64,000 bases of DNA from a virus (taxonomy: Duplodnaviria; Caudoviricetes): positions 32,001 through 96,000 of the IMG/VR virus record IMGVR_UViG_3300017912_003441; one strand, 5' to 3'. Shown here one piece after another: positions 24,433-64,000 of the stretch. The notes beneath the pieces were generated by a model. That model saw only the letters and a program-made list of their open reading frames with translations, searched no databases and was not told the origin of the DNA. Position 1 is the first letter of the stretch, and every line of letters begins with the position of its first letter. The position numbers and the translations under genes are program-made.

Positions 24433-24508
24433 TGGTGGGCCTTGTAGGATTTGAACCTACGGCCAATCGATTATGAGTCGACTGCTCTAACCGCTGAGCT
24501 AAAGGCCC
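24433..24508 (-). tRNA. tRNA-Ile2(CAU) (Met less likely)
   Basis: GGGCCTTTAGCTCAGCGGTTAGAGCAGTCGACTCATAATCG...GGTTCAAATCC...ACCA resembles bacterial Ile2 tRNAs. Confidence 0.88.
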
Positions 24509-31886: not shown

Positions 31887-32168
31887 TTAGATTTGTTTCT
31901 CGAGCTTAGCGATCAATTGCTTGACGCTAACTGTAGGGTTGGTTAGATTATAGGTGAGAATATTATAAAGCTGATTGCACTCACCTTTAGTTAGTTTAAT
32001 TTCACTAGGAAGTTTTTCCCATTCTTCGAACTTAAGTTCAACTGGTTCAGCAATACCATGCACATAAACTTTTTTCTTTGCGAGAGGTCCTCTTGGATCT
32101 CTGCGGCGGTCGAGAGTATTATCGTATTCTAATTTCATATTAGTCTGCAATTCCGTAATGTTGCTCAA
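31887..32168 (-). CDS. hypothetical protein
   Basis: ORF track. Confidence 0.5.
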   Translation of the reverse strand: MSNITELQTNMKLEYDNTLDRRRDPRGPLAKKKVYVHGIAEPVELKFEEWEKLPSEIKLTKGECNQLYNILTYNLTNPTVSVKQLIAKLEKQI

Positions 32169-47676: not shown

Positions 47677-47752
47677 TGGAGCCAGTTGTCAGATTCGAAC
47701 CGACGACCGTTCGATTACAAATCGAGTGCTCTACCAACTGAGCTAAACTGGC
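47677..47752 (-). tRNA. tRNA-Thr(UGU)
   Basis: Canonical cloverleaf, loop TT-TGT-AA, GGTTCGAATC, CCA. Confidence 0.95.
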
Positions 47753-48819: not shown

Positions 48820-48896
48820 TGGCACTCCAGACTGGACTTGAACCAGTAACCACCTGCTTAGAAGGCAGATGCTCTATCCAATTGAGCTACTGGAGC
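48820..48896 (-). tRNA. tRNA-Arg(UCU)
   Basis: Canonical cloverleaf, loop CT-TCT-AA, CCA. Confidence 0.95.
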
Positions 48897-49201: not shown

Positions 49202-49288
49202 TGGTACCAGTGGTCGGACTCGAACCGACAAGCCCAAAAGGGCGACAGATTTTAAGTCTGTTGTGTTTGCCAATTTCACCACACTGGC
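49202..49288 (-). tRNA. tRNA-Leu(UAA)
   Basis: Long variable arm, loop CT-TAA-AA, CCA. Confidence 0.95.
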
Positions 49289-50030: not shown

Positions 50031-51239
50031 TTACAATTCGGACTTAACGCTGAGTGCGACTCGTTCGGCTTTTTCTTTTGCATACTCTAATTTATTATCT
50101 AATGCTATAGCAACCCCCATACGTCGCGAACCTTTTACTCCAGGTTTTCCAAATAGTCTCACTTGTGTACCAATTTCTTTTAACCCTTCGAAGCCTGAGA
50201 ATGTTACACTGTCACTCTCACCTTCTAACTTAATAACATGAGACGCTCCGAAACCTAGCTGTAGAATTTCTGGAACTGGTAGTCCTAATATAGCTCTAGC
50301 ATGTAGAGCAAACTCTGATAGATCTTGAGAGATCATAGTCACTAACCCAGTATCATGTGGTCGTGGAGATACTTCAGAGAAATAAACTTCATCACCTTTA
50401 ACGAATAACTCTACCCCGAACACCCCATAACCACCAAGATTGCTTACTACACTTCTAGAAATATCTTGAGCTTTTTGTCTAGCATCCCCAGACATTGGAT
50501 GAGGTTGCCAGGATTTGATATAGTCTCCATCTACTTGCTCATGTCCGATAGGTTCACAAAAAGAAATACCATCGCTATGCTTTACTGTGAGTAAAGTAAT
50601 TTCATAATCGAATTCGATAAACTCTTCTACAATAACTCGACCAGCTCCAGCTCTACCTCCAGTTTGAGCGTAGTCCCAAGCAGTATGTACATCATCAAAC
50701 GATCTAACTACACTCTGTCCTTTACCGCTAGAAGACATAATTGGCTTAACTACACAAGGTAAGAAGTGGTCGTCTACAGAAGACCGTAAAGAAATTTCAT
50801 TAACAGCAGTAACAAACTCTTCTTTAGTAGAAGCGAATTTATAATTAGAAGTCTTTAATCCTAGCTCTTCAGCTACAAGAGTCCGAATACCTTCTCGGTT
50901 CATAGTAAGTTGAACTGCTCTAGCATTTGGTATGACTGTACGATCACATTCTTCTGCTTCTTTGAGGACATTTGTAGCAATAGCTTCAATTTCAGGAACA
51001 ATAATATTAGGGTTGTATTTAACGATCACATCCCTCAATTGTTTTTCATCAAGCATATCAATAACAGCTGAATGATCTGCTACTTGATGCGCTGGAGCAT
51101 TCTCATATGAGTCCACTGCAACTACTTCAGCGCCTAAACGCTGTAATTCAATTACAACTTCTTTACCTAACTCTCCACTTCCGCATAGCATTACTAAAGT
51201 AGAAGTCTTCGTAAACGGGGTACCTATTTTTGTTTCCAT
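50031..51239 (-). CDS. purT: formate-dependent phosphoribosylglycinamide formyltransferase
   Basis: [44 protein letters not shown]. Confidence 0.96.
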
Positions 51240-51240
51240 T

Positions 51241-51669
51241 TTAAAATTTTGCGGCGATTGCGCGATGTTTTGCTGTGATTCCTCCATCTCGATCTACATT
51301 AATTCCATAAGCTGTTTTAAGAGCTCGTTTATTACCAGCTGCACCAGGTGGTTTGATATCGTTTACCACAACCCTAGGGCCTGCGCCCAACTCGAATATC
51401 CATTGATCAAACGGCATACCAATATATTCTAATACATTTAATGTATGGTCGATGTGTCTTTTTTCACGAGCGGTCGCAATGACGATAATATCAGTTTCAG
51501 GTAAGTCTTGAAAAAACTCTACTGCGCTAATAATAGGCTGTTCATATTTAAAACTATCATCCCCATACTCCTCGATAAGTTTATCCAAGCTATCATTTGT
51601 GTGATGATGTAAGATTGTTCCATCTACATCTACGAACCATGTTTTATTTAACGTTTCCATATTAATCAA
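51241..51669 (-). CDS. HAD-superfamily phosphatase
   Basis: DVDGT, TAR, VND motifs. Confidence 0.8.
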
Positions 51670-53116: not shown

Positions 53117-53509
53117 ATGATAATTCAAGCCACAATTAAGTTTGAAGTTTATGTCGAATTACATGACCAGACATTTGAATCAAAATTGATAGAAATAATG
53201 GGTGGGAAGGAACAAGGAGAGCTAAAAGGAGATATTGAGAGAATTGACGGTCAAAAAATATTTACAATTACTAACTCTGATGTTCATGGAAAGCTGCATG
53301 GGTTGAATCTTGGCTTTCAATTTTATACTGCTACAATATCAAAATGCTTAGATCTTGGCGCGACTGAATTTAGATCTTCTCACTTACTTAACGAAAACAG
53401 TACTGCTGTATGGAAAAAAATCGAACGATTATATTATAATTGTTCTTTCGTTAATAAAACAAAAAAAGATACATATTATTGTGTAAAGCGCGATAAAGAG
53501 TTATTGTGA
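53117..53509 (+). CDS. GNAT-like fold protein
   Basis: HGLNLG..FY...S..VWKK; TAAATA upstream. Confidence 0.4.
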   Translation: MIIQATIKFEVYVELHDQTFESKLIEIMGGKEQGELKGDIERIDGQKIFTITNSDVHGKLHGLNLGFQFYTATISKCLDLGATEFRSSHLLNENSTAVWKKIERLYYNCSFVNKTKKDTYYCVKRDKELL

Positions 53510-54495
53510 AGCAATTTAATTTTCTAAGGAAAAAAACTTTCAGAGAAGAGATTCATCGAGCAGGGTGGAACTGGGTTAATGCCTGTATGGTAAAACGCTT
53601 TCACAACGATACAGCAGACATACTCATAGATGAATTTATAGAAAGAACATTCGATTGGGATTATTGCTTTAACAACGATAAGCCTCAAGTACTTCCTCAT
53701 CACAAAAAAGATTGGATTGGTTTTATACACAACCCAATGATTATACCTAAACCGTTTGATATAAAACAGACCCCTATAAACATGTGCGCTAGATTACCGT
53801 TTGTATTAGCTATGCGTAACTGTAAAGGTATATTTACTTTATCAGACGATTTAGAAGAACATGTAAGATATATTTTTACCCAATACGGATTCGATCATAT
53901 TTTGGTTGAAACATTATTACACCCAACACCGTTAGATGTAGAAGAGTTTAATTTAAATGCATTCTTAGAGAAACCTCAAGTTACTTGTTTAGGTTACTGG
54001 TTGAGAGACTTTGAAAAGTATTGGCTGTTAAACACTCAAATGCCTAAAAATGTCTTATTAGGTAGATTACCTTATGCGCATCAAATATATGATGAGCAGA
54101 TGAAAGAGTTTAAACGTAAGCAAGAGTATACTGGGGAACAAATTAAAGGTAACGTTATAGTACATAAGCATTTAGAGAATAAAGAGTTTGATAAGTTCAT
54201 GACTGATACAATTGGTTTTTTATATCTAATAGACACAAGCGCTAATAACGGTGTTACTGATTGTATATCGAGAAACATTCCTCTTCTAGTTAATTGTCAC
54301 CCAGCTGTAGTACAATACCTAGGTGAAGATTATCCCTTCTATTATAACTCGCTAGAGACTGCTAATAAAAAGATAAATGATATTGAGCTAATAAAAGAAA
54401 CTCATCTGTATCTTAAAAATATGGATAAGTCTAGACTAGATATCAAAACATTTATGACTGAGTTTGAAGCGAGTGAAATTTATCAAGAAGCATAA
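53506..54495 (+). CDS. glycosyltransferase-like (GT-B) protein
   Basis: HR.GW, WIGFIHNP, GYWLR, DTSANN...CI.RN.PLLVN..PAV..YLG..YP. Confidence 0.6.
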   Translation: MKQFNFLRKKTFREEIHRAGWNWVNACMVKRFHNDTADILIDEFIERTFDWDYCFNNDKPQVLPHHKKDWIGFIHNPMIIPKPFDIKQTPINMCARLPFVLAMRNCKGIFTLSDDLEEHVRYIFTQYGFDHILVETLLHPTPLDVEEFNLNAFLEKPQVTCLGYWLRDFEKYWLLNTQMPKNVLLGRLPYAHQIYDEQMKEFKRKQEYTGEQIKGNVIVHKHLENKEFDKFMTDTIGFLYLIDTSANNGVTDCISRNIPLLVNCHPAVVQYLGEDYPFYYNSLETANKKINDIELIKETHLYLKNMDKSRLDIKTFMTEFEASEIYQEA

Positions 54496-54523
54496 AAAAA
54501 AAGACTCCTTTCGGAGTCTTTTG
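54496..54523. terminator. bidirectional terminator
   Basis: AAAAGACTCC-TTTC-GGAGTCTTTT. Confidence 0.85.
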
Positions 54524-54543
54524 TTTATTATGTTTAATCTATG

Positions 54544-54777
54544 TTAAACTTGTTCAGCGGGTTGTGCGAGTCCAATTGCTGTTCCTACTGCCGCTCTAGC
54601 TTGCTCTAATTGAACATGCTCCATATATGTGAACGGCTGTGATCTTACAGCGCTTGTAAGAAACCCAAATGCTTGCTCAGTACTGAGCTCATCTAGATTA
54701 ATCTCTTGCCCACCTTCTTGCTGAGGTTGTGCTTGGGCTCCAGCGGGTGCTTCGGTACCTTGACTAATGTTCGCCAT
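54544..54777 (-). CDS. small protein, paralog of 54779..55024
   Basis: EQAFGFL...FTYMEHVQLEQA. Confidence 0.55.
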   Translation of the reverse strand: MANISQGTEAPAGAQAQPQQEGGQEINLDELSTEQAFGFLTSAVRSQPFTYMEHVQLEQARAAVGTAIGLAQPAEQV

Positions 54778-54778
54778 A

Positions 54779-55024
54779 TTACTTCTTCCTCCTTCCGCCA
54801 CGACGAGGGGTTTTAGCCTTCGCCTTCGTTGGTGTAGGGGCTTCATCTTCTAGTACAACAGGTTCATCTGTGTCTAGAAGCTCTGCAGGTTCTTGACCAC
54901 CACCACTTTGTAGTGCGTCTTTAAGAACATCTACAGATCTTTCAAGTAAGACGTGTTCATTGTAAGGTAGCTTAATACCTTTTACAACCTGATTTAACAT
55001 ATCTAATGCTTGTATCGGATCCAT
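54779..55024 (-). CDS. small late protein
   Basis: QALDML...LPYNEHVLLERS; TATAAATA upstream. Confidence 0.6.
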   Translation of the reverse strand: MDPIQALDMLNQVVKGIKLPYNEHVLLERSVDVLKDALQSGGGQEPAELLDTDEPVVLEDEAPTPTKAKAKTPRRGGRRKK

Positions 55025-55079
55025 AACGAAAATTATTTATACCACGGTGGAATTTAGTCAACTTTGATTAAATACTTAC

Positions 55080-55364
55080 ATGCCAGAAGGTGAACCAACA
55101 GCAAATTCGACGGAAGCGCAGGCAGCAGTTACTGCCGCGTTAGATTCTGTTACAGTTATTGACAATATCATAGATAATACAGAGGCAGTAGCAGGACAAA
55201 CTACAGCTGAAAAAGCTGATGATGCAGACAGAAACTATCGACACATCGAACTTATGATGGATAAAGATTGGTTTACTGAAACTGCTACAACAGCTCAGAA
55301 GAGTAAGTTCAATACCGCTATTACAGAGGGTAGGACTTATTATCAGTCTAACAGCGCTGCTTAA
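55080..55364 (+). CDS. small fibre-associated protein (putative)
   Basis: RNYRHIELM motif; TAAATA upstream. Confidence 0.5.
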   Translation: MPEGEPTANSTEAQAAVTAALDSVTVIDNIIDNTEAVAGQTTAEKADDADRNYRHIELMMDKDWFTETATTAQKSKFNTAITEGRTYYQSNSAA

Positions 55365-56179
55365 TAATTAAAATACTTGAAATAAAACTCTCCGACCTCT
55401 TTTATATGGTCGCAAGTTTTAACACCAAGAACGTCGATATAATCCTGTGGTAATTCGCTTACTACAGGATTAATTTTATGATCACCGTATATTCCGTATA
55501 CGGTGTCATCTTCTTTTGTAGTCTGTTCTACTTTATTGAAGTTGTGTCCAGTATAAGAGTCAAGTTCTAGATAGTCATATATCCTATCCATTTCTTCATC
55601 TGGATACTTTGTGAAGTCTTCGAATTTTACAAACAACATATGCTTATCCCATCCGCGTTTAATTATCTCACCGAAACGCTCTAATGCTAAGCCTACAGGC
55701 TGTGTTTGTAACCATACAGATGCTCTTTTCTCAACGGTTGTGCCCGACATTTCTGACCAATTAACTATAGGGTCATGGTCGAGAGGGTTCTCTCTAAATT
55801 TCTTTTCCATAGAGGCGATTATCTGTCTAAGATCTCTAACCATACAAATGATCTTAGGTTCATACTCTAAGAATGCATCTAAGAAGTCATAATGTATACC
55901 CCAGCCTCTACTCTTATCTACTACATAGGGCTTATCAGTAATATTATCGTACCACCCATGTATACCTTCATTAAGAAAACCAATAAGACCATCCTCCATA
56001 GTTTTAGAATCTTGAGCTTGAAACTCATTAGATTCGTTAAACATATGTCGAGCAGCAAAGGTTAGCTCTAATACACCTGAGGTAGGTGTAGCATATATGT
56101 CGGGATTTTGAGCAAGTACATTTTGTAATAATGTACTACCTGCCCTCGGCATAGAGGACTGAAAAAAGATTGTTGACAT
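55361..56179 (-). CDS. PAPS-dependent sulfotransferase family protein
   Basis: 5'-PSB SMPRAGSTLL, DKSR.W, 3'-PB VRD...I.AS, FEDF...P. Confidence 0.88.
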   Translation of the reverse strand: MSTIFFQSSMPRAGSTLLQNVLAQNPDIYATPTSGVLELTFAARHMFNESNEFQAQDSKTMEDGLIGFLNEGIHGWYDNITDKPYVVDKSRGWGIHYDFLDAFLEYEPKIICMVRDLRQIIASMEKKFRENPLDHDPIVNWSEMSGTTVEKRASVWLQTQPVGLALERFGEIIKRGWDKHMLFVKFEDFTKYPDEEMDRIYDYLELDSYTGHNFNKVEQTTKEDDTVYGIYGDHKINPVVSELPQDYIDVLGVKTCDHIKEVGEFYFKYFNY

Positions 56180-57246
56180 TACTTTCTACGCTTCTTAGGT
56201 TTTTGTCTATTAGTACGTTTACCTGGTGCTGGAGGGAATGGGTTATTCATTTGAGCTAGCACAGGCTCAGGAGGTAATGGTTTAGCAGTATCAAATAAGT
56301 TCTTCTCTTGCTTGTTACTTACTCTCACCCCTGCAGGTGGTTCGTAAAATTCTTTCTCTTCTAACTCTTCGAGACTGTCTAAGATTGGTTGTGATTCAAA
56401 TATATTATCATTATCAAATGGGCACTCATGTAAGAACTCTCCATTGATCGGATGAGCACCTAAGTAACTATCAATCAAATGTACTTTACGAGTATCAGCA
56501 TTAGATACAATATTGTTATGGAAATCAGGATAACCTAATGTCTTAACGTTATCAATAGGCCATAATACAGTAGATGGTCTATCTAATGCTACCGCTGCAT
56601 GCTGACCAAAACTATCAATTAATAATCTGTTATGAGAATATTCTATAAGAGCAAATAAGTCTCTTACATTAGGAGTTTCAATATAATCAATACCTTTAAT
56701 CTCTAACTGATCTTTCCTTCTAATATGAATAATCTTATACTCTTTATTAACTTCATTTAGTACTTCTTTAAGATTAGATAGAGGTACATCTCTTACCCAT
56801 GATACTGGATAGTCTTGTGGTCCACCTCCGTTAGTTTGTAGAGCAAAAATAGGCTTACCAAAACCACGAAGTTTTCTATCCATATTATCTTTCTCATTCT
56901 TAGATAGAACTATTGTGGGCATTTCTCCGTTGTATGGTACGCCTAGTTGCTCGCACCAAATATCTGCAAGGTATCTCTTACCGTTTAAAAAGTCATGATG
57001 ATGGTATGGTTCGGATTTAAAGATCCAAGTATCTTTACCTTTAATAAAATCTTCAAAGAAGTATGGTGTTGCACCCAGCATATAAAAACGTTCAATATGA
57101 GGATTATTTACCCATACTGCTGCCCATGCAGCTACTACGATTAATTTTCTATCAGGATGTGCTTTTGATATAGCTTCAGCAACTGCCGTAGCCATAATGT
57201 TCTTACCGATACCGCCTTCTACGTGAAAGATAATATGTTTGTCCAC
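56179..57246 (-). CDS. GT9 / ADP-heptose transferase-fold glycosyltransferase (GGIGK variant)
   Basis: EGGIGKNIMATAV..AI..AHP, NNPHI, IDSFGQHAAVAL..P..VLW. Confidence 0.75.
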   Translation of the reverse strand: MDKHIIFHVEGGIGKNIMATAVAEAISKAHPDRKLIVVAAWAAVWVNNPHIERFYMLGATPYFFEDFIKGKDTWIFKSEPYHHHDFLNGKRYLADIWCEQLGVPYNGEMPTIVLSKNEKDNMDRKLRGFGKPIFALQTNGGGPQDYPVSWVRDVPLSNLKEVLNEVNKEYKIIHIRRKDQLEIKGIDYIETPNVRDLFALIEYSHNRLLIDSFGQHAAVALDRPSTVLWPIDNVKTLGYPDFHNNIVSNADTRKVHLIDSYLGAHPINGEFLHECPFDNDNIFESQPILDSLEELEEKEFYEPPAGVRVSNKQEKNLFDTAKPLPPEPVLAQMNNPFPPAPGKRTNRQKPKKRRK

Positions 57247-57305
57247 GTAAAAATTTATCTACATACAATTAAAACTCCAGTGTGTATGTTTTATCAAAGT
57301 TCAAC

Positions 57306-60300
57306 TTACTCTTTATACTTCTTCTCAGCAAGTACCTCAGGTCCTTCCCAGCTTTGAACTGCGGCATCCTTACGTGTACCTATTAATAATACGTTATAAT
57401 TACCATCGGTTTCAGAGCAAACAATTAAACATTTTTGATCTTCTGTTACTTCTCCATATGCATTACCAAAGTGACGATTCGGTGAAATCCATACTTGATC
57501 GTTTTTATTAAGATATCTATAGTAATCAGGTAACTCTATTACTGACCTACAATTAGTTGTCTCTGTTGTCCACCTATAAATATTATCACCTTCGGTTGGA
57601 GACTCTACAAACGAGTGTACCAAGTCATATTTCTCTCGTTTAGCAGGATCAGGATGCGGTATATTAAAACAACCAGAAGACTTACTCAACGCACCACATA
57701 TATATGTATTTGTGGTAGATGCATTACCAATGTAAGTTCTATTACAAGCTGTTGTATTAGCGCAACCTGCATGCTTACCAATACCAATATTATTACCACC
57801 AGTTGTATTACCATATAAAGCACCGCAACCAATTGCAACGTTAGTACTACCACCAGTATTACTATACATCGCGTAATAACCGAGTGCAACATTTTGACCA
57901 CCTGTAGTATTAATTCTTAAAGATTTAGCGCCCATTGAAGTATTTTGTTGACCGGTGGTAGTCGCGTAGGCCGATTGATAACCACTTGAAGTGTTACTAC
58001 TAGCTGACGTGGTTGCATATAACGCACCAACTCCTACCGCAGTATTCTGACCACCAGTAGTGGTTTGTTGCATCGCACAACCACCCACAGCGGTATTAGA
58101 CGAAGCGGTATTATTATATAAAGCGGAAACACCAACCGCGGTGTTCCTAAAGCCAGTAGTATTTTTGAACAAAGCTTGCATACCAAATGCTGTATTATTA
58201 TGACCAGTTGTATTACAGCACATAACTCTATACCCACTAGCAGTATTAAAGAACCCTGATGTAGTAGCTTGCATTGCTTTGAAACCGATCGCAACATTAC
58301 CAGTCCCTGTACCGCTAGGTAATGCACAATAACCTAAAGTAGTACAACTGCCATTTGCGGAACCTGTACTACCACATAAACTACCACCAGCAGATATACC
58401 AGTTAAGTTAGATCCATCTCCGTAAAAACCAGAAGTAGCACAAACAACACCACCTCTTACACAAGTACTACCACATACTCTTGGTGCGACAACACATGAC
58501 CCAGCGCATACATTCTGGTTATGACATACTCGGTTATAAGAAACTGTAAATTTACGCACCCCACCAAATATTGCATCATAACCATAAGTAGCTGACGCAC
58601 CCATTTCTACTTTAATACCGTATTCAGTAGCAGTACCGACATTTTTACAAACCCTCATAGCCCAATCACTATTACTGCATTGCCATATTAATAATGCAGT
58701 GTCGAGCGATGAATTTCTATCAGCACCGTCTATAACAACCGACCCACATCTACATACTTTTAGTGGGTGAATCCAGCCGTTACCTGCTGCATTACCAACT
58801 CCAAATGTTATACAATTTTGAGTCTGAGACCATGCGTAAATATGATTACCAGTTTGCAGATAACCTGGTGTACGTAAATATGAGGAACCTGTAATACCAA
58901 GACAAGAGCAAATATTACTAGCAGCTTTAATACAATTGTTAACATATAAACAACCAGCGCAGTTAAGATGCAGTATGTTAGATCCGGCACAATTTCTAAA
59001 AAAGAAACAACCAGTGTTATAGTTTTGGAAGTACAGGTGACATGAATGAGCTTGTATTTTAGTTTTTTCTCCAGACCAGTTAGAGTGAGTAAAAGTTATA
59101 CCACAACAAGCATGTACACAGTTAGTAGCTAATACATAAGGAGCCCTCGCGCACGTAGAACCGATTATATAAGGTCCGCATACGCTATCAGCCGCGCATA
59201 GATGACCAGCTGAGCGAACCACACAAAAACAACCAGTCGTAGCAGAACCATTACCGACTCCTTGCATTTGTAGGGGGTAAGCAGAGGTATTACAAATAGT
59301 ACTGTTTCTACAGGTTTGTGCATTAGCGCAAGTTAGTGCACAAACACAAGCACAGTTGCCCGGGCAAAAGTACGTACACGTACTATGAGGCATTCCTTGA
59401 GAATCTGTACCACCAGTGCCATCATATACACAAACACAACTATTACACATAGCATCTGAAGCGTAACAATAAAGAGCACCACCACCTCTTAGTAATACAA
59501 TACCACCAGATACTGTATGTACGTGACCGCCTATAACAGTAGTATAAATTTCGCGAACCTGGTTGACTCTAAAAGATCTATCGTTACCTCCCCATTGGGT
59601 ATCTGATGTTTGTTCCCAAGTATAATTTAAACCGCCTTTGTGAGTTGATGTATACCATGTATTAGGAGCAGTAGAATTATAACTTCTATTTATCGAATAC
59701 CTTTTATATCCGAACGTGTAACCTCTAAAATAACACACAGGGTAAAAAGTATCTGCATCTCCGCAAACCATAAATTGTCTCCACTTACAGCAACCTTGTG
59801 CCATATTAGTTACATTAGCTCCGTTAGAGTAAACATTAGGAGCAGTTACACATCCTGTAGCACATACCGTAGGAGCTCTAAGACAGCTAGCAGCGCATAT
59901 AATGCCACAATGACAAAGACAGCCTGTATATAGGTTCATTTTCACACTATTACCTATTCTAAAGTCAGTACAAGAACTAGCTACATGTCGTATAGCCCAA
60001 TTCCCGTTAGAGTCTAATATACCGATATTGTTACTCGAGTTTCCATATAAATAACCACGTGCTGTAGTATTATCGCTCGTAGTTATTACTAGAGCAGTAT
60101 TAGAGTGACACGATCTTAAGTGCATGTACGGAGTATTTGAACATGCTGGATATAGATGTAAGCTACAGTTACCACTCCAATATAACCCTCTTGTTGCAGA
60201 GCCAAATCTTACCCACTCTCCTACACATGTTGCGTTACCTGATACCAAATCACAACCAGCACAAACATTACAATTAGCTTGCATACAACTTACTGCTAAT

Positions 60301-62462
60301 ATACAACCCGCAGACCTTAAGCCCCAGTTTGTAGTCGCGTTAGAACAAAATCTTCCATTATTGTATGCACAAACAACACCAGTACCCCCACCGTGTATAC
60401 CTGCTGTATGACTACTAAAATAAAGTCCATTATTACCTGTAATTCTGTACCAATCAGATGTAACACATATACCACCAGCAGATACAATTGCACAAGATCC
60501 TGTCGCTGTTGAGCAAATCCGACCACCTACAATATTACCATATACACAAGTTGTATTACACAATCTGATATCAGTACTAGAGTTTACTAAAATTCTAGCA
60601 TTACCACCAGAGTCATATATATGAATTTGATTATCACAATTAAAATGTAAACAACCACGCCCAGCACCACAACTAAATCCTTGTAGACCGATATTATTAG
60701 CTTGACCACTATAAAACCGAACATTATTTGTCGCAGTAGAATAAAAATGAAATCCTGTACCTGTGTTATATAGTCCTTGACCTGAATTAGCATTTCTAAA
60801 CCACGAACCAGAACAAATTTCAGTACCACATATATTACCTGTAGAGTGTACACAAGCTGTTCTTACACAAGTTGTACCACAAATAGCAGCACTCTGTACA
60901 CATGATGTACCACAAATAACAGGTGCGTATAATTTACCTGTAAGAATCTGACCACCGTCTTGTATACACTGTAAATTTACACTAGCACTGGTACAATAAC
61001 AACCAGCAGGCCAACAAGCATTAAAACATGAAGTACTATAAGGTACACATGCATCACAACACCACGAATTTAGAAAATACCAACCACTTGAGTGTATATT
61101 ATCTCCTGCTTCATATGCTACGAGATTATTAGTCGCATCACACACATAAACCTGCAAAGCAGCACCGTCGTATGTACTAGAATCCTTTATTCGAATACAC
61201 TGCATAGGTTGATTAATATATCTACTATAGCTTAATACATTAATACTGTTACCTTCTCCATACATATGAGTGGCATAAAACACAACATATTGATGCCTAC
61301 TACCAGTTGTATCTCTAAGAACAAATCTACCACCAGCTCTACTACCTGTATTAATAAAAATTGTATGCCAACCTACAGGAAGATTAGCGCTTGCATTTAC
61401 TTGAGGTAAATAACGGGTACCCATAATACTCCATGTCGGGAACGAACGAGTCATACTAGTTGTAGAACACAAACAATTAACGCTCAACTGACCAGCTATT
61501 GTATTACACACATCCCCAACGGTACATATAGAACATACACGTGCTTGACCTGTTGCACAAACAGTAGCTCCTCTAAGACAACTAGTACCACATATTCTCG
61601 GAGATTGTAAACAAACACAACCGTATACTCCACCGCCTTGACACATTACCATAGCTGTAGTGCCATTAGGATTTGCTGTGGCATCGGCGCAGTTATTTAC
61701 TACAAACTCAAACCGACCTCCTCCTGCTTCATCTCCTGCTATTATTTGGTTCACACCGTTATTACCAAGTTGAAGTTTATTCCAGCAAAATAATCCTCTA
61801 TAATTATTATTCCCGTCGCTATAACGAGCTGCATAAATCGGATATTTTATACAACCTGTACAAGAACATATAAAACCACATGATGTGGAAGCGAACCTCA
61901 AACCCTGGTGGTTCAACTGAGCTAAATTTTGTGTTGTACCAGACCCATTATCTTCTTGCCAAACAAACCCTCTCTGGTAACTAGTACCAGACCCGTTGTT
62001 ACCTAACATTTTAAAATACATATTATAATCGCCTTGTGACCAAAGCTCACCAGCTCCACTACCTCCGGTCGAAGACATATATATTTTATAACTCTGGGAA
62101 CCGTTCCAGAATCTAATACCGTTACCATCCCCAGCGTCAACAAGGTAATTGTCTGAGTATGTATTACCAGAACTACGAAGACAGGAAGCAGCACACACAG
62201 TAGGAGTACACAAAGTATTACAAACTTTAGTATGAGTAGAGCCAGAGTCTCCGATGATAATAGGACAGTTACCAGCCGCGCGAAAATGGAGATTAGTACA
62301 ACTCTGTATTGTGTTATATAAGTTCTCTGAACCAACACATATATTACCAAAGCGCACACAACCACTAGCGTTATCACTATTCGCACGTATAGTAGGAGTA
62401 CATAAGGTACTTCCTGCAGTAAGCTCGACTACTTTTCCATATTGTTGACTTAATAATCCCAT
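57306..62462 (-). CDS. Cys-rich long tail-fibre protein
   Basis: [VI]C[GA]xxC[VL] repeats, NTAxGxxAL.NTTG beta-helix repeats, C-terminal F.I.HP...L.HSFVESP..DNIYR...LPDY domain. Confidence 0.8.
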   Translation of the reverse strand: MGLLSQQYGKVVELTAGSTLCTPTIRANSDNASGCVRFGNICVGSENLYNTIQSCTNLHFRAAGNCPIIIGDSGSTHTKVCNTLCTPTVCAASCLRSSGNTYSDNYLVDAGDGNGIRFWNGSQSYKIYMSSTGGSGAGELWSQGDYNMYFKMLGNNGSGTSYQRGFVWQEDNGSGTTQNLAQLNHQGLRFASTSCGFICSCTGCIKYPIYAARYSDGNNNYRGLFCWNKLQLGNNGVNQIIAGDEAGGGRFEFVVNNCADATANPNGTTAMVMCQGGGVYGCVCLQSPRICGTSCLRGATVCATGQARVCSICTVGDVCNTIAGQLSVNCLCSTTSMTRSFPTWSIMGTRYLPQVNASANLPVGWHTIFINTGSRAGGRFVLRDTTGSRHQYVVFYATHMYGEGNSINVLSYSRYINQPMQCIRIKDSSTYDGAALQVYVCDATNNLVAYEAGDNIHSSGWYFLNSWCCDACVPYSTSCFNACWPAGCYCTSASVNLQCIQDGGQILTGKLYAPVICGTSCVQSAAICGTTCVRTACVHSTGNICGTEICSGSWFRNANSGQGLYNTGTGFHFYSTATNNVRFYSGQANNIGLQGFSCGAGRGCLHFNCDNQIHIYDSGGNARILVNSSTDIRLCNTTCVYGNIVGGRICSTATGSCAIVSAGGICVTSDWYRITGNNGLYFSSHTAGIHGGGTGVVCAYNNGRFCSNATTNWGLRSAGCILAVSCMQANCNVCAGCDLVSGNATCVGEWVRFGSATRGLYWSGNCSLHLYPACSNTPYMHLRSCHSNTALVITTSDNTTARGYLYGNSSNNIGILDSNGNWAIRHVASSCTDFRIGNSVKMNLYTGCLCHCGIICAASCLRAPTVCATGCVTAPNVYSNGANVTNMAQGCCKWRQFMVCGDADTFYPVCYFRGYTFGYKRYSINRSYNSTAPNTWYTSTHKGGLNYTWEQTSDTQWGGNDRSFRVNQVREIYTTVIGGHVHTVSGGIVLLRGGGALYCYASDAMCNSCVCVYDGTGGTDSQGMPHSTCTYFCPGNCACVCALTCANAQTCRNSTICNTSAYPLQMQGVGNGSATTGCFCVVRSAGHLCAADSVCGPYIIGSTCARAPYVLATNCVHACCGITFTHSNWSGEKTKIQAHSCHLYFQNYNTGCFFFRNCAGSNILHLNCAGCLYVNNCIKAASNICSCLGITGSSYLRTPGYLQTGNHIYAWSQTQNCITFGVGNAAGNGWIHPLKVCRCGSVVIDGADRNSSLDTALLIWQCSNSDWAMRVCKNVGTATEYGIKVEMGASATYGYDAIFGGVRKFTVSYNRVCHNQNVCAGSCVVAPRVCGSTCVRGGVVCATSGFYGDGSNLTGISAGGSLCGSTGSANGSCTTLGYCALPSGTGTGNVAIGFKAMQATTSGFFNTASGYRVMCCNTTGHNNTAFGMQALFKNTTGFRNTAVGVSALYNNTASSNTAVGGCAMQQTTTGGQNTAVGVGALYATTSASSNTSSGYQSAYATTTGQQNTSMGAKSLRINTTGGQNVALGYYAMYSNTGGSTNVAIGCGALYGNTTGGNNIGIGKHAGCANTTACNRTYIGNASTTNTYICGALSKSSGCFNIPHPDPAKREKYDLVHSFVESPTEGDNIYRWTTETTNCRSVIELPDYYRYLNKNDQVWISPNRHFGNAYGEVTEDQKCLIVCSETDGNYNVLLIGTRKDAAVQSWEGPEVLAEKKYKE

Positions 62463-62468
62463 AGTATT

Positions 62469-64000
62469 TTAAAAAACTCTTTTAATTTTCACACATGTGT
62501 TATTTTTATATGACCCGCCCGCTACTTGAATTTGCAAGCAAGTTGCACAAGCAGCAGCATAACACTCGCACCCTGTTGTACCGACTAGTAATTTAGGTAC
62601 GGCAGTTATTGTCCCACCACCCGAATCATGTACAGTACCTCTAACAAAATTATTTACGTGGTTAATGTACTTAGTCACTGCTGAACCACTCCAACCTGTG
62701 GTAACATATACTGACATATGTACTATATCTCTATATGATCCTGAACCAGCACAATTCGGGTTAGCTGAAACATATACATCATATACTGCATCATACCCTG
62801 TTACACAACTAGTATTAAAACAAATAGTACCCGTACACATAGTAGCGCATGAAAGGGTATCTCCTTCCATACCATCAGCACAAACCGTACCTGTAACGCA
62901 TAGATTACCATGAACTTTTGTAAACTGACATATATGAGTTGTACCTGATGTAATTGTAATTCTTTCTGCTGCAGTACTATTTGCGCAACCTCTATGCAGT
63001 ATTAAATCTTCATCATAAGAACCAATACAACCAGTATTTACGATCCATGGTTTATTTACATAAAATTTACTTCTATCAGTTATAAAATGGCCCCAACTAC
63101 CTGTTGGGCAAATGTCTATATACCCAGCAGAAGAACACGTACGAGACCCATTAGCTAGAGTGCGGAATCTCGCCGCACCTGCTTGATAAAGGTAAGTAGA
63201 AGAACCACTACCAAAATATAGCACCCATTGATTGCAAGAATCGTTATAAATACCACCACCACCACAATCTGATGCTGACATAAAAGTTGTTCCACAGAAA
63301 TGAACACCACCATACCCTCCTTTGTTTCCTTCAATTGCCAATGCACCGTAATCAGAAGGTGCACTACCACTACTAGAAATAACATTAGTAGCTAAACATG
63401 TTGTACCACAAACTTTACCAGCAACAAATGTACTGTTACTAGAGTCTCCGTCATGCCTTTTAAGAGCTAAACTAGGGGCAGAGTAAGTGCCACCGGTCTG
63501 GAGATATGGGCCGCAATTAGATGGATAACACCACCTAACAATACTACCAGAAGTCTCAATAACATTCCCCGTAACACAACTTGTAGCACAAAGAACGGAA
63601 CCATGCACGCAAGCATTTAACATTTTACTTGAACCAATATAAAATCCTGAAGCTCCAGCTGTTTGATCTATACGTACTGTAGTTGAATCTTCAGTACTAT
63701 CAAAGTGAAACGAATTTCCAGCACCACTAGCATCACAAGAATCAGCATGAAAATGTCTAAGGTAACCTCTCTGGGTACTTGCAGGATTATCATTAAACAT
63801 AATTGACGTACCACCACCATTAAGACTATTAACAAGGTTAAGAGCATAACAAGCAGTCCCTCCGTCTTGAATTGCATTTAATACACCTACAGCACAGGTA
63901 CCTGCAACTGTTAACTTACCTCCTGTAATTGTACAAGTAGCTCGTAAACACACACTAGTAAAATCTTCTCCTAAAGATAATATACCACTATTACCTTCTA
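62469..64000 (-). CDS. Cys-rich tail-fibre protein, 5'-truncated
   Basis: Frame is open to the window edge; fibre-like modules (GYIDI.P..S.GHF.TDR..FY) with many Cys. Confidence 0.75.
   Translation of the reverse strand, partial: EGNSGILSLGEDFTSVCLRATCTITGGKLTVAGTCAVGVLNAIQDGGTACYALNLVNSLNGGGTSIMFNDNPASTQRGYLRHFHADSCDASGAGNSFHFDSTEDSTTVRIDQTAGASGFYIGSSKMLNACVHGSVLCATSCVTGNVIETSGSIVRWCYPSNCGPYLQTGGTYSAPSLALKRHDGDSSNSTFVAGKVCGTTCLATNVISSSGSAPSDYGALAIEGNKGGYGGVHFCGTTFMSASDCGGGGIYNDSCNQWVLYFGSGSSTYLYQAGAARFRTLANGSRTCSSAGYIDICPTGSWGHFITDRSKFYVNKPWIVNTGCIGSYDEDLILHRGCANSTAAERITITSGTTHICQFTKVHGNLCVTGTVCADGMEGDTLSCATMCTGTICFNTSCVTGYDAVYDVYVSANPNCAGSGSYRDIVHMSVYVTTGWSGSAVTKYINHVNNFVRGTVHDSGGGTITAVPKLLVGTTGCECYAAACATCLQIQVAGGSYKNNTCVKIKRVF

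Follow-up and report, generated by a model that had tools for sequence, protein, structure and literature searches.

Cysteine-rich tail fibers adjoin a GT9-like glycosyltransferase and a sulfotransferase in marine phages: a candidate virion-decoration module

We analyzed 64,000 nucleotides (the window; positions 32,001 to 96,000) of IMG/VR record IMGVR_UViG_3300017912_003441, a 119-kb, ~59% complete sequence from an uncultured marine T4-like phage. At the nucleotide level, the region had no match among cultured phages. Toward its right end, the window carries the following features.

53506..54495, plus strand: convergent GT-B-fold glycosyltransferase, GT4-like (329 aa; AF2 pLDDT, 93)
54499..54522, both strands: bidirectional terminator-like hairpin (10-bp stem; T run on both strands)
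55361..56179, minus strand: PAPS-type sulfotransferase (272 aa; assigned by Pfam)
56179..57246, minus strand: GT9-like (heptosyltransferase-fold) glycosyltransferase (355 aa; assigned by AlphaFold model and Foldseek)
57306..62462, minus strand: tail-fiber gene, here gene A (1718 aa; 127 Cys, i.e., 7.4%)
62469..64000, minus strand: fiber-like gene, here gene B (the window holds the C-terminal 509 aa; 6.3% Cys)

Gene A matched tail-fiber and virion-structural families of PHROG (1e-22 to 1e-31) and, by tblastn, annotated tail fibers of pelagiphages, roseophages, and cyanophages. NTAxG-type fiber repeats occupy residues ~1360 to 1600 and are followed by a C-terminal domain (~1600 to 1718). Gene B extends past the window to genome position 98482 (L001:469-4482, minus strand) and encodes 1337 aa in full length (6.1% Cys); it matched no Pfam or PHROG family and is called a fiber by position, composition, and shared motifs alone. 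A third fiber, which lies on the same scaffold past the window end, has 4357 aa and 4.1% Cys. Counted gene by gene, the fibers (7.4%, 6.1%, and 4.1%) stand apart from the other genes (~1% on average); Cys in the giant fiber genes reaches six to eight times the usual level, and no further ORF of at least 150 aa across the 119-kb record exceeds 3.2% Cys. The initial annotation had put the fibers at one Cys in ten residues; the enrichment is real, and the actual rate is ~1 in 14 to 16. Its finer readings were exact, namely, 9 Cys within the first 100 residues of 57306-62462, Cys-poor structural genes at 4.3 to 19.8 kb (0 to 1.0% Cys per gene), and the fiber motifs SKSSGCF, MCCNTTG, and NVCAG. Among 16 metagenomic homologs of gene A (E ≤ 1e-30), 15 contain 6.1 to 8.0% Cys, which is among their best-kept residues. 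No tRNA-Cys gene was detected in the 119-kb record.

Foldseek searches with the AF2 model of the GT9-like protein (pLDDT, 83) placed 3TOV and WaaF 1PSW at ranks 1 to 3 (E values of 5e-11 to 5e-9), with TibC and WaaC after them. The GT9 donor motif D-[ST]-G-x-x-H-x-A-A-L-x-x-P was found in the C-terminal domain (LIDSFGQHAAVALDRPS; donor-side DSFGQHAAVAL..P), and a GGIGK motif lies at the N terminus. Among 30 diverse relatives, G11, G12, G14, K15, D211, S212, and H216 are invariant, as is a WxRDxP motif; D211 and H216 correspond to D261 and H266, which are invariant in WaaC, WaaF, and WaaU. The protein ends in a disordered, basic tail of ~55 aa. Pfam Glyco_transf_9 (PF01075) matched neither the protein, even at E ≤ 10, nor any of the six translated frames of the record, and the family profile obtained a chance match alone among PDB sequences.

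The canonical GT9 catalytic Asp (Asp13 of WaaC) was not found in this protein, and Lys15 stands in its place. This Asp-to-Lys exchange had been proposed from the letters of the sequence, and hhalign upholds it by setting the invariant Lys15 against WaaC G12-D13, in a weak alignment (probability, 10.6%; E value, 0.003). In the model, Lys15 occupies the beta1-alpha1 junction, as does Asp13 in WaaC. Judging by its predicted GT9 fold and the invariant donor-site residues, the protein looks like an active enzyme.

The adjoining gene matched Sulfotransfer_3 (1.9e-13; 51.6 bits) and Sulfotransfer_1 (2e-11; 44.2 bits), the cutoffs being 27 and 22 bits, respectively, and contains 5'-PSB and 3'-PB motifs (PRAGSTLL and VRDLRQIIAS). 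Only 59 nt separate gene A from the GT9-like gene, whose stop is overlapped by 1 nt by the sulfotransferase start, all on one strand. The hairpin at 54499..54522 ends both this minus-strand unit and the convergent plus-strand unit. The same-strand order of fibers, GT9-fold enzyme, and sulfotransferase described in the initial annotation is thus borne out by gene identity and strand. In our estimate, the odds lean slightly toward these genes being transcribed late as a single unit whose products decorate the virion.

An alignment-based search of IMG/VR recovered 484 relatives of the GT9-like protein; a scan with the single sequence found no match, so that an alignment was required. In nearly all of 80 IMG/VR loci, a large fiber ORF lies immediately upstream of the GT9-like gene on the same strand, and the main fiber family in these loci has a median Cys content of 4.3% (maximum, 8.2%). 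Median Cys is 2.8% at distances of up to 1.5 kb from the GT9-like gene and drops to 0.8 to 0.9% past 4 kb. When the GT9-like sequences were clustered at 55% identity, 13 of the 15 assessable clusters had an ORF of 3% Cys or more no more than 5 kb away. The reverse test began from the 10%-Cys fiber-tip proteins of cyanophages (Gly_rich_2), which are not homologous to the Cys-rich fibers of the window; a GT9-like gene was present ~1.5 kb downstream in all 62 assessable loci. The search profile for these proteins was built from three paralogs, which sufficed, a seven-protein alignment being too divergent. Cys-rich proteins of the Gly_rich_2 type also occur in 11 records from cultured phages or SAGs, and all those examined carry the GT9-like gene.

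A set of phage genomes provides a matched control. The fibers of pelagiphages HTVC112P and HTVC111P contain 14 and 12 Cys, respectively, all within NTAxG repeats, and the GT9-like gene follows directly 3'. The NTAxG repeats of CRP-7, CRP-1, CRP-831, Venkman, ctfne034, and ctpbd312 contain 0 to 4 Cys, and these complete genomes lack the GT9-like gene, as do Va2 and LR756500 (fiber Cys, 0.35% and 0.3%). Exceptions in the other direction exist, i.e., Cys-poor fibers (0.7 to 1.8%) adjoin the GT9-like gene in five loci (L027, L034, L046, L062, and L083), and the fiber beside it in AG-345-L05 has just 1.0% Cys. The predicted co-occurrence of high fiber Cys with the GT9-like gene was therefore positive across non-homologous proteins and matched controls, in counts that come from related contigs and are not independent samples. 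The module is present in hundreds of aquatic phage contigs, including relatives of phages of SAR11, Prochlorococcus, and Synechococcus.

The sulfotransferase is a less constant companion. In 46 of the 80 related loci, it lies directly 3' of the GT9-like gene, and an APS kinase comes next in 25 to 29 of them; in cyanophages, a carbamoyltransferase is the partner instead, and pelagiphages have no partner enzyme. The expectation that it would accompany the GT9-like gene thus held for those 46 loci and failed in cyanophages and pelagiphages. Being replaced or absent elsewhere, the sulfotransferase is therefore accessory and not core. In cyanophages P-SSM2, S-SSM7, and Sf-FS3, the GT9-like homolog adjoins gmhA, a PfkB kinase, cytidylyltransferase-like genes, and an epimerase, which together make up an ADP-heptose pathway, as well as the carbamoyltransferase. 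Given these genes in cyanophages and the APS kinase and sulfotransferase elsewhere, the phages appear to bring along the donors as well as an enzyme that tailors the sugar. The 119-kb record, which represents ~59% of a genome, yielded neither an APS kinase nor any of these ADP-heptose genes, those of the gmhA and cytidylyltransferase types included.

Since the GT9-like enzyme adjoins Cys-rich fiber proteins in many unrelated phages, it probably decorates the fibers. We propose that, in the cytoplasm, it would glycosylate the Cys-rich fibers, with heptose as the most likely sugar and ADP-heptose as its donor, and that the translationally coupled sulfotransferase would then add sulfate from PAPS, most likely to the fiber-bound sugar. 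The fibers as acceptor, heptose as the sugar, and the sugar as the site of sulfation are all inferred. Because the presence of Cys tracks the GT9-like enzyme, Cys is the leading candidate for the attachment residue; attachment to Cys is plausible, and attachment to Ser, Thr, or Asn is possible. In its most far-reaching form, the model would make these GT9-like enzymes, with their invariant Lys, protein S-heptosyltransferases that act on surface Cys of the fibers, with a partner (the sulfotransferase here and the carbamoyltransferase in cyanophages) that tailors the sugar. We hold this tentatively, at a probability of roughly 0.3.

The main competitor gives the Cys a structural role. In this explanation, disulfides formed after lysis, or bound metals, stiffen the fibers in oxic seawater, while the enzymes act on a free glycan or, to mask receptors or exclude superinfection, on the envelope of the host, and the adjacency reflects host-range genes traveling together. 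We consider it unlikely overall, but several observations speak for it. Few residues, if any, are better conserved in fibers A and B than Cys, with 59% kept at 31% identity and 81% at 54% identity, the latter value from the gene B ortholog in a TARA scaffold (L086). The strongly conserved Cys of these two fibers and of the cyanophage tip proteins form CxC, CxxC, or CCC clusters, and three S-SSM7 paralogs share 26 invariant Cys in CxC, CxxCxxC, and CCC clusters. Conserved clusters of this kind typically mark disulfides or metal sites, not sites of glycosylation, and a structural role fits them as well. An alignment of 11 relatives of fiber A, in which paired Cys losses were sought, was gappy (2964 columns) and dominated by phylogeny. 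Disulfide-linked fibers are also documented, in cyanophage Pam3, where Cys of the fiber and baseplate hold the fibers on the virion (PMC9942802). Pam3 uses a handful of specific Cys and has no linked glycosyltransferase, whereas the fibers described here contain 4 to 8% Cys over thousands of residues. Moreover, the classical product of GT9 enzymes is the LPS core.

The same explanation leaves two patterns without an account. One is the tracking of the GT9-like gene by Cys density across non-homologous proteins and hosts. The other comes from the 4357-aa fiber, in which Cys occurs only at variable positions of a 17-residue repeat, at ~1 per repeat. When the repeat positions of this fiber were examined for constant Cys partners, no consistent pairing emerged, one pair (positions 7 and 14) being enriched on only 5 cases, and from one ortholog to the next the Cys change position at an unchanged density. 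This behavior is more consistent with surface sites than with a disulfide scaffold of fixed geometry. In addition, the 32-kb podophages HTVC111P and HTVC112P retain the GT9-like gene immediately 3' of the fiber. As to an envelope target, the LPS of marine Synechococcus is reported to be heptose free, and the normal core of the host is therefore an unlikely destination for the product of a phage ADP-heptose pathway.

It is improbable that the GT9-like protein instead lacks catalytic activity and serves the Cys-rich fibers as a chaperone or assembly factor, comparable to the phage tail-fiber assembly genes found 3' of fibers. Its position immediately 3' of the fiber genes and the replacement of the canonical catalytic Asp by Lys would suit such a role, and Foldseek also matched non-enzymatic GT9-fold subunits of chloroplast NDH (9GRX and 7WFF). 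Against it, the nucleotide-sugar motif and cleft residues are invariant in the 30 diverse members, and the gene is recurrently linked to genes for nucleotide-sugar supply, PAPS supply, and sugar tailoring, which would be useless to a chaperone.

The notion that the Cys enrichment is a functionless by-product of base composition, mutation bias, misread frames, or the genetic code draws on the fiber coding strand being G+T-richer than the rest of the window, and it is largely refuted by the counts: Cys is 1.4 to 1.6 times the expectation from positional base frequencies in the fibers and strongly avoided elsewhere among the structural genes (0.35 times), so that base composition does not account for the enrichment; Phe, Leu, Val, and Trp show no parallel enrichment; the long fiber ORFs are unambiguous and have homologs among known fibers; and Cys is restricted to certain repeat positions and kept by orthologs. 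Codon reassignment was discarded, as nothing supported it. Mutagenesis of the DGR type was likewise rejected as the source of the variable-position Cys, given that NNT randomization would yield ~6% Cys and not 12 to 18%.

Among the known systems closest to this module are the bacterial autotransporter heptosyltransferases (BAHT) TibC and AAH, GT9-related GT-B enzymes (PDB 4RAP and 4RB4) that act on the adhesins TibA and AIDA-I; in the cytoplasm, a BAHT hyper-glycosylates a repetitive beta-solenoid adhesin encoded next to it, using heptose from ADP-heptose (PMC4358343). BAHT hallmarks are an iron finger with four conserved Cys, an N-terminal beta-barrel, and a beta-hairpin thumb (PMC4358343). 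The GT9-like gene shares with them its place beside a long repetitive fiber, and TibC is among the Foldseek matches of its product. The GT9-like protein differs in having no iron finger (2 Cys in 355 aa), barrel, or thumb, its model beginning at Rossmann beta1, and in carrying Lys at the GT9 Asp position, whereas TibC uses the catalytic residue D110. BAHT acceptors are Ser, while the candidate substrates here stand out for Cys, and the gene is phage encoded and paired with a sulfotransferase or carbamoyltransferase. The LPS-core heptosyltransferases WaaC and WaaF (CAZy GT9; PF01075) are the best structural neighbors of the protein (3TOV, 1PSW, and 2H1H) and share its donor-side motif; it departs from them in its lack of a Pfam match, its invariant Lys15 at the Asp13 position, and its location behind fibers and not in an LPS cluster.

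Precedent for a sugar on a Cys thiol or another chalcogen nucleophile is provided by the glycocin S-glycosyltransferases SunS, ThuS, and GccA, by plant UGT74B1, and by SenB. UGT74B1 acts in glucosinolate synthesis, in which a PAPS sulfotransferase step comes next. The glycocin enzymes are GT2 members of the GT-A fold that modify small peptides, in contrast to the two glycosyltransferases described here, which are GT-B. Virus-encoded glycosyltransferases are known to decorate the viruses' own structural proteins in mycobacteriophages (capsid and tail) and chloroviruses (capsid glycans). These systems employ other enzyme families and O- or N-linkages, without Cys enrichment, and we know of no report of sulfation or carbamoylation in them. 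Nor, to our knowledge, is there a precedent for heptose linked through sulfur or for S-glycosylation of a virion protein. In the literature on Cys-rich fibers, phage heptosyltransferases, phage S-glycosylation, and phage sulfotransferases, our searches turned up no account of the present system.

Tail fibers set host choice and the survival time of the particle. A coat of sugar and sulfate on the fibers, if present, would alter how marine host range, particle decay, and receptor recognition are read. The initial annotation supposed that such a coat could shield the fiber or mimic sulfated glycans, which is conjectural. Linkage through Cys would represent a new protein-sugar linkage and, with Lys in place of the catalytic Asp, a new enzyme mechanism. 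If the sugar on Cys were heptose, it would be the first S-linked heptose and the first S-glycosylated virion, widespread in abundant ocean phages (pelagiphages and cyanophages).

The convergent gene at 53506-54495 had been named in the initial annotation as a nearby GT-B gene. Its fold and orientation were as described; a family HMM found it in the syntenic scaffold L086 only and in none of the 159 loci centered on the GT9-like gene or on Cys-rich proteins. The gene is kept just in close relatives and is not part of the conserved module. It had no Pfam match, and its profile reached SenB in the PDB at E values of 0.45 to 1.1, with nothing stronger. Foldseek returned 310 matches (E ≤ 1e-3) for the model, all of them GT-B enzymes among the matches listed, including SenB (top), GlgM, BshA, SdgB, and Gtf3; the likeness to SenB is one of fold alone, at 8 to 9% identity.

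The 119-kb record (about 59% complete), of which the window covers bases 32001-96000, comes from a divergent marine T4-like myovirus, and its gp6-like baseplate wedge shares ~24% identity with the cyanophage counterparts. Read from the right, the minus strand carries the 4357-aa fibre, fibre B, fibre A, the 355-aa gene, and the 272-aa gene.

Layout of the locus (window coordinates).
Beyond the window (flank L001), minus strand: 4357-aa fibre, ~190 copies of the 17-residue repeat NTAVGxxALxxNTTGxx and almost nothing else
62469-64000, minus strand: last 509 aa of a 1337-aa gene (fibre B)
57306-62462, minus strand: 1718-aa fibre A
56179-57246, minus strand: 355-aa GT9-like gene, 59-nt gap after fibre A
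55361-56179, minus strand: 272-aa sulfotransferase gene, start overlapping the stop of the 355-aa gene by one base
Between the sulfotransferase gene and the hairpin: two small ORFs, end of the minus-strand unit
54499-54522: bidirectional terminator-like hairpin closing the minus-strand unit
53506-54495, plus strand: 329-aa GT-B gene, opposite the minus-strand unit

The best-supported reading, to which we assign a probability of roughly 0.55, is a fibre-decoration system. The GT9-like transferase would place a sugar on the neighboring Cys-rich fibre proteins, and an accessory enzyme (the sulfotransferase in this phage) would then tailor it. Fold, motif, and the ADP-heptose genes borne by cyanophages point to heptose as the probable sugar; we infer the fibre acceptor, the sugar identity, and the sulfation site. 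A further suggestion of the initial annotation, a coat that mimics sulfated glycans, drew no support from the analysis. A literature search found no description of such a system (Cys-rich fibres plus a GT9-like enzyme), the nearest published cases being the disulfide-anchored fibres of cyanophage Pam3 (PMC9942802) and the TibC/AAH adhesin heptosyltransferases (PMC4358343).

Cys makes up 7.4% of fibre A (127 residues), 6.1% of fibre B (82), and 4.1% of the 4357-aa fibre (177); the values are 0 to 3.2% for the record's remaining ORFs of 150 aa or more and 0 to 1.0% for the structural genes at 4.3-19.8 kb. The initial annotation had counted 9 Cys in the first ~100 aa of fibre A and quoted several Cys motifs; residues 1 to 100 contain exactly 9, and all of the motifs are present. 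Fibre A matched tail-fibre and virion-structural PHROG families (1e-22 to 1e-31) and, by tblastn, annotated fibres of pelagiphages, roseophages, and cyanophages; judged by these matches, it is a real fibre homologue. Its 16 metagenomic homologues contain 6.1 to 8.0% Cys, save one distant Cys-poor member, and Cys ranks among their best conserved residues. The C-terminal domain (residues ~1600-1718; window 57306-57660; FNIPHPDP...LVHSFVESP...), whose sole match was the uncharacterised PHROG 28536, is nearly Cys-free, in contrast to the rest of the protein.

IMG/VR contains 484 relatives of the GT9-like family. Of the 80 best loci, nearly all had a large fibre-like ORF immediately upstream in the same orientation; the fibre family seen most often there (44 loci) had a median of 4.3% Cys (maximum, 8.2%). 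For ORFs of at least 250 aa, median Cys was 2.8% up to 1.5 kb from the GT9-like gene and 0.8 to 0.9% beyond 4 kb (Mann-Whitney p 5e-9; loci not independent). The proposed co-occurrence of Cys-rich genes with the GT9-like gene across phage genomes was borne out, also when the GT9-like proteins were grouped at 55% identity: 13/15 assessable clusters had an ORF of 3% Cys or more within 5 kb, and 10/15 had one of 4% or more. Co-occurrence with the sulfotransferase held in part; this gene was directly downstream in 46 of the best 80 loci, but cyanophages have a carbamoyltransferase instead and pelagiphages have neither. Homologues of both accessory enzymes lie near the GT9-like gene in the single-cell viral genomes AG-345-L05 (L003) and AG-345-O18 (L091), the former being exceptional in that the adjoining fibre has just 1.0% Cys.

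Cys-rich proteins with no relation to these fibres show the association too. In the cyanophages P-SSM2, S-SSM7, and Sf-FS3 and in single-cell viral genomes, two or three small fibre-tip-like Gly_rich_2 proteins (9 to 11.5% Cys) are encoded just upstream of the GT9-like homologue, which is followed by the carbamoyltransferase and the ADP-heptose pathway. Conversely, among 79 loci centred on Cys-rich Gly_rich_2 proteins, the GT9-like gene was present in 62/62 with enough flank. Such proteins occur in 11 of 50,697 phage records from cultures or SAGs, and these are essentially the records with the GT9-like gene. In Synechococcus phage Sf-FS3 (L172, 11588-20291), several 2OG-Fe(II)/prolyl-4-hydroxylase-like genes are scattered among those for the GT9-like enzyme, the carbamoyltransferase, and the heptose pathway, a hint that cyanophages carry out additional tailoring of proteins or sugars.

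The cleanest comparison of Cys with the GT9-like gene is a matched pelagiphage-roseophage control of fibres sharing NTAxG repeats, picked in expectation of GT9-free genomes. The gene was absent from eight complete genomes (CRP-7, CRP-1, CRP-831, Venkman, ctfne034, ctpbd312, Va2, and LR756500), and the repeats in GT9-free genomes, where present, contain 0 to 4 Cys. Pelagiphages HTVC112P (14) and HTVC111P (12) had the most Cys among the compared fibres, all inside the repeats. In both, the gene immediately after the fibre is GT9-like (HMM E 1e-26); its annotation reads just "putative glycosyl transferase." Just upstream of a large tail protein, these phages also encode an RTX-toxin-type lysine acyltransferase (HTVC112P gp46, L174:1154-1540; HTVC111P gp50, L180:913-1320), which may be a second virion-protein-modifying enzyme, acting by fatty acylation of Lys.

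The main rival, which we consider rather unlikely, is that the Cys residues serve cross-linking or metal binding, with the host envelope as the target of the enzymes. Cys in the 4357-aa fibre falls at variable repeat positions 7, 10, 11, 16, and 17 (12 to 18% each), occasionally 14, and at none of the conserved ones; there is about one per repeat, in a distribution more even than random placement would give (mean, 0.79; variance, 0.58). No position in the same or an adjacent repeat served consistently as a partner, and orthologs at 44% identity retained 27% of Cys, yet density held (97 versus 85). From sequence, selection seems to have favored Cys density on a face that varies and is probably exposed, and not a fixed disulfide scaffold. 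In fibres A and B, however, 59% and 81% of Cys were retained between orthologs (31% and 54% identity), and 26 Cys, arranged in CxC, CxxCxxC, and CCC clusters, are invariant in the cyanophage tip proteins; such patterns are at least equally compatible with disulfides or metal sites.

Although a Pfam search of the 355-aa protein gave no match, its predicted structure (model from 30 relatives; pLDDT 83) was nearest to the GT9 structures 3TOV, WaaF, TibC, and WaaC. In this family the first strand is followed by an invariant GGIGK, with Lys15 opposite WaaC Asp13 in a weak profile alignment. The GT9 donor-side motif is retained, with D211, S212, and H216 invariant, corresponding to the invariant D261 and H266 of WaaC, WaaF, and WaaU. 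The "Asp-to-Lys GT9" of the initial annotation is therefore supported at the level of fold and motif. A role as a non-catalytic chaperone is improbable. Attachment of the decorating sugar to Cys is a tentative proposal; in its favor, Cys tracks the enzyme, the repeat pattern is surface-like, and the catalytic base is missing, and no finding speaks directly against it. A compositional artefact is very improbable, as fibre Cys is 1.4 to 1.6x the expectation from positional base frequencies (0.35x in other structural genes) and the enrichment is specific to Cys, with no rise in Phe, Leu, Val, or Trp. Identity as a bacterial autotransporter heptosyltransferase was ruled out; the protein has neither the four-Cys iron finger nor the beta-barrel and thumb that define TibC (PMC4358343). 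Residues ~300-355 (window 56179-56340) form a disordered, Pro- and Lys/Arg-rich tail (pLDDT below 50) that this phage shares with its nearest relatives; it is missing from the ~290-aa proteins that make up most of the family.

Pfam identifies the 272-aa protein as a PAPS-type sulfotransferase, in which both PAPS-binding motifs can be seen. APS kinase, the PAPS-making enzyme, follows the sulfotransferase in 25 to 29 of the best 80 GT9-like loci, for example as a 150-aa protein at L011:11689-12141 (PF01583, E 1.8e-12); those phages would therefore boost their own PAPS supply. No APS kinase gene was found in the 119-kb record. The convergent gene does have the GT-B fold initially assigned to it (pLDDT 93; nearest structures SenB, GlgM, BshA, SdgB, and Gtf3), but it lies outside the conserved module because the syntenic TARA scaffold L086 is the sole other place where its family was found. 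The closest of these structures, the selenosugar synthase SenB proteins, make a carbon-selenium glycosidic bond; SenB also ranked first in a profile search against sequences, at E 0.45-1.1 only, a resemblance at the fold level alone.

Four minus-strand tRNA genes lie in the window (24433-24508, Met-CAT; 47677-47752, Thr-TGT; 48820-48896, Arg-TCT; 49202-49288, Leu-TAA); none of the tRNA genes in the record is tRNA-Cys, although the fibre genes demand much Cys. The window also encodes a full-length PurT, formate-dependent GAR transformylase (50031-51287; ATP-grasp and PurT_C domains, E 7e-54), an auxiliary purine-synthesis gene shared with the syntenic TARA scaffold.
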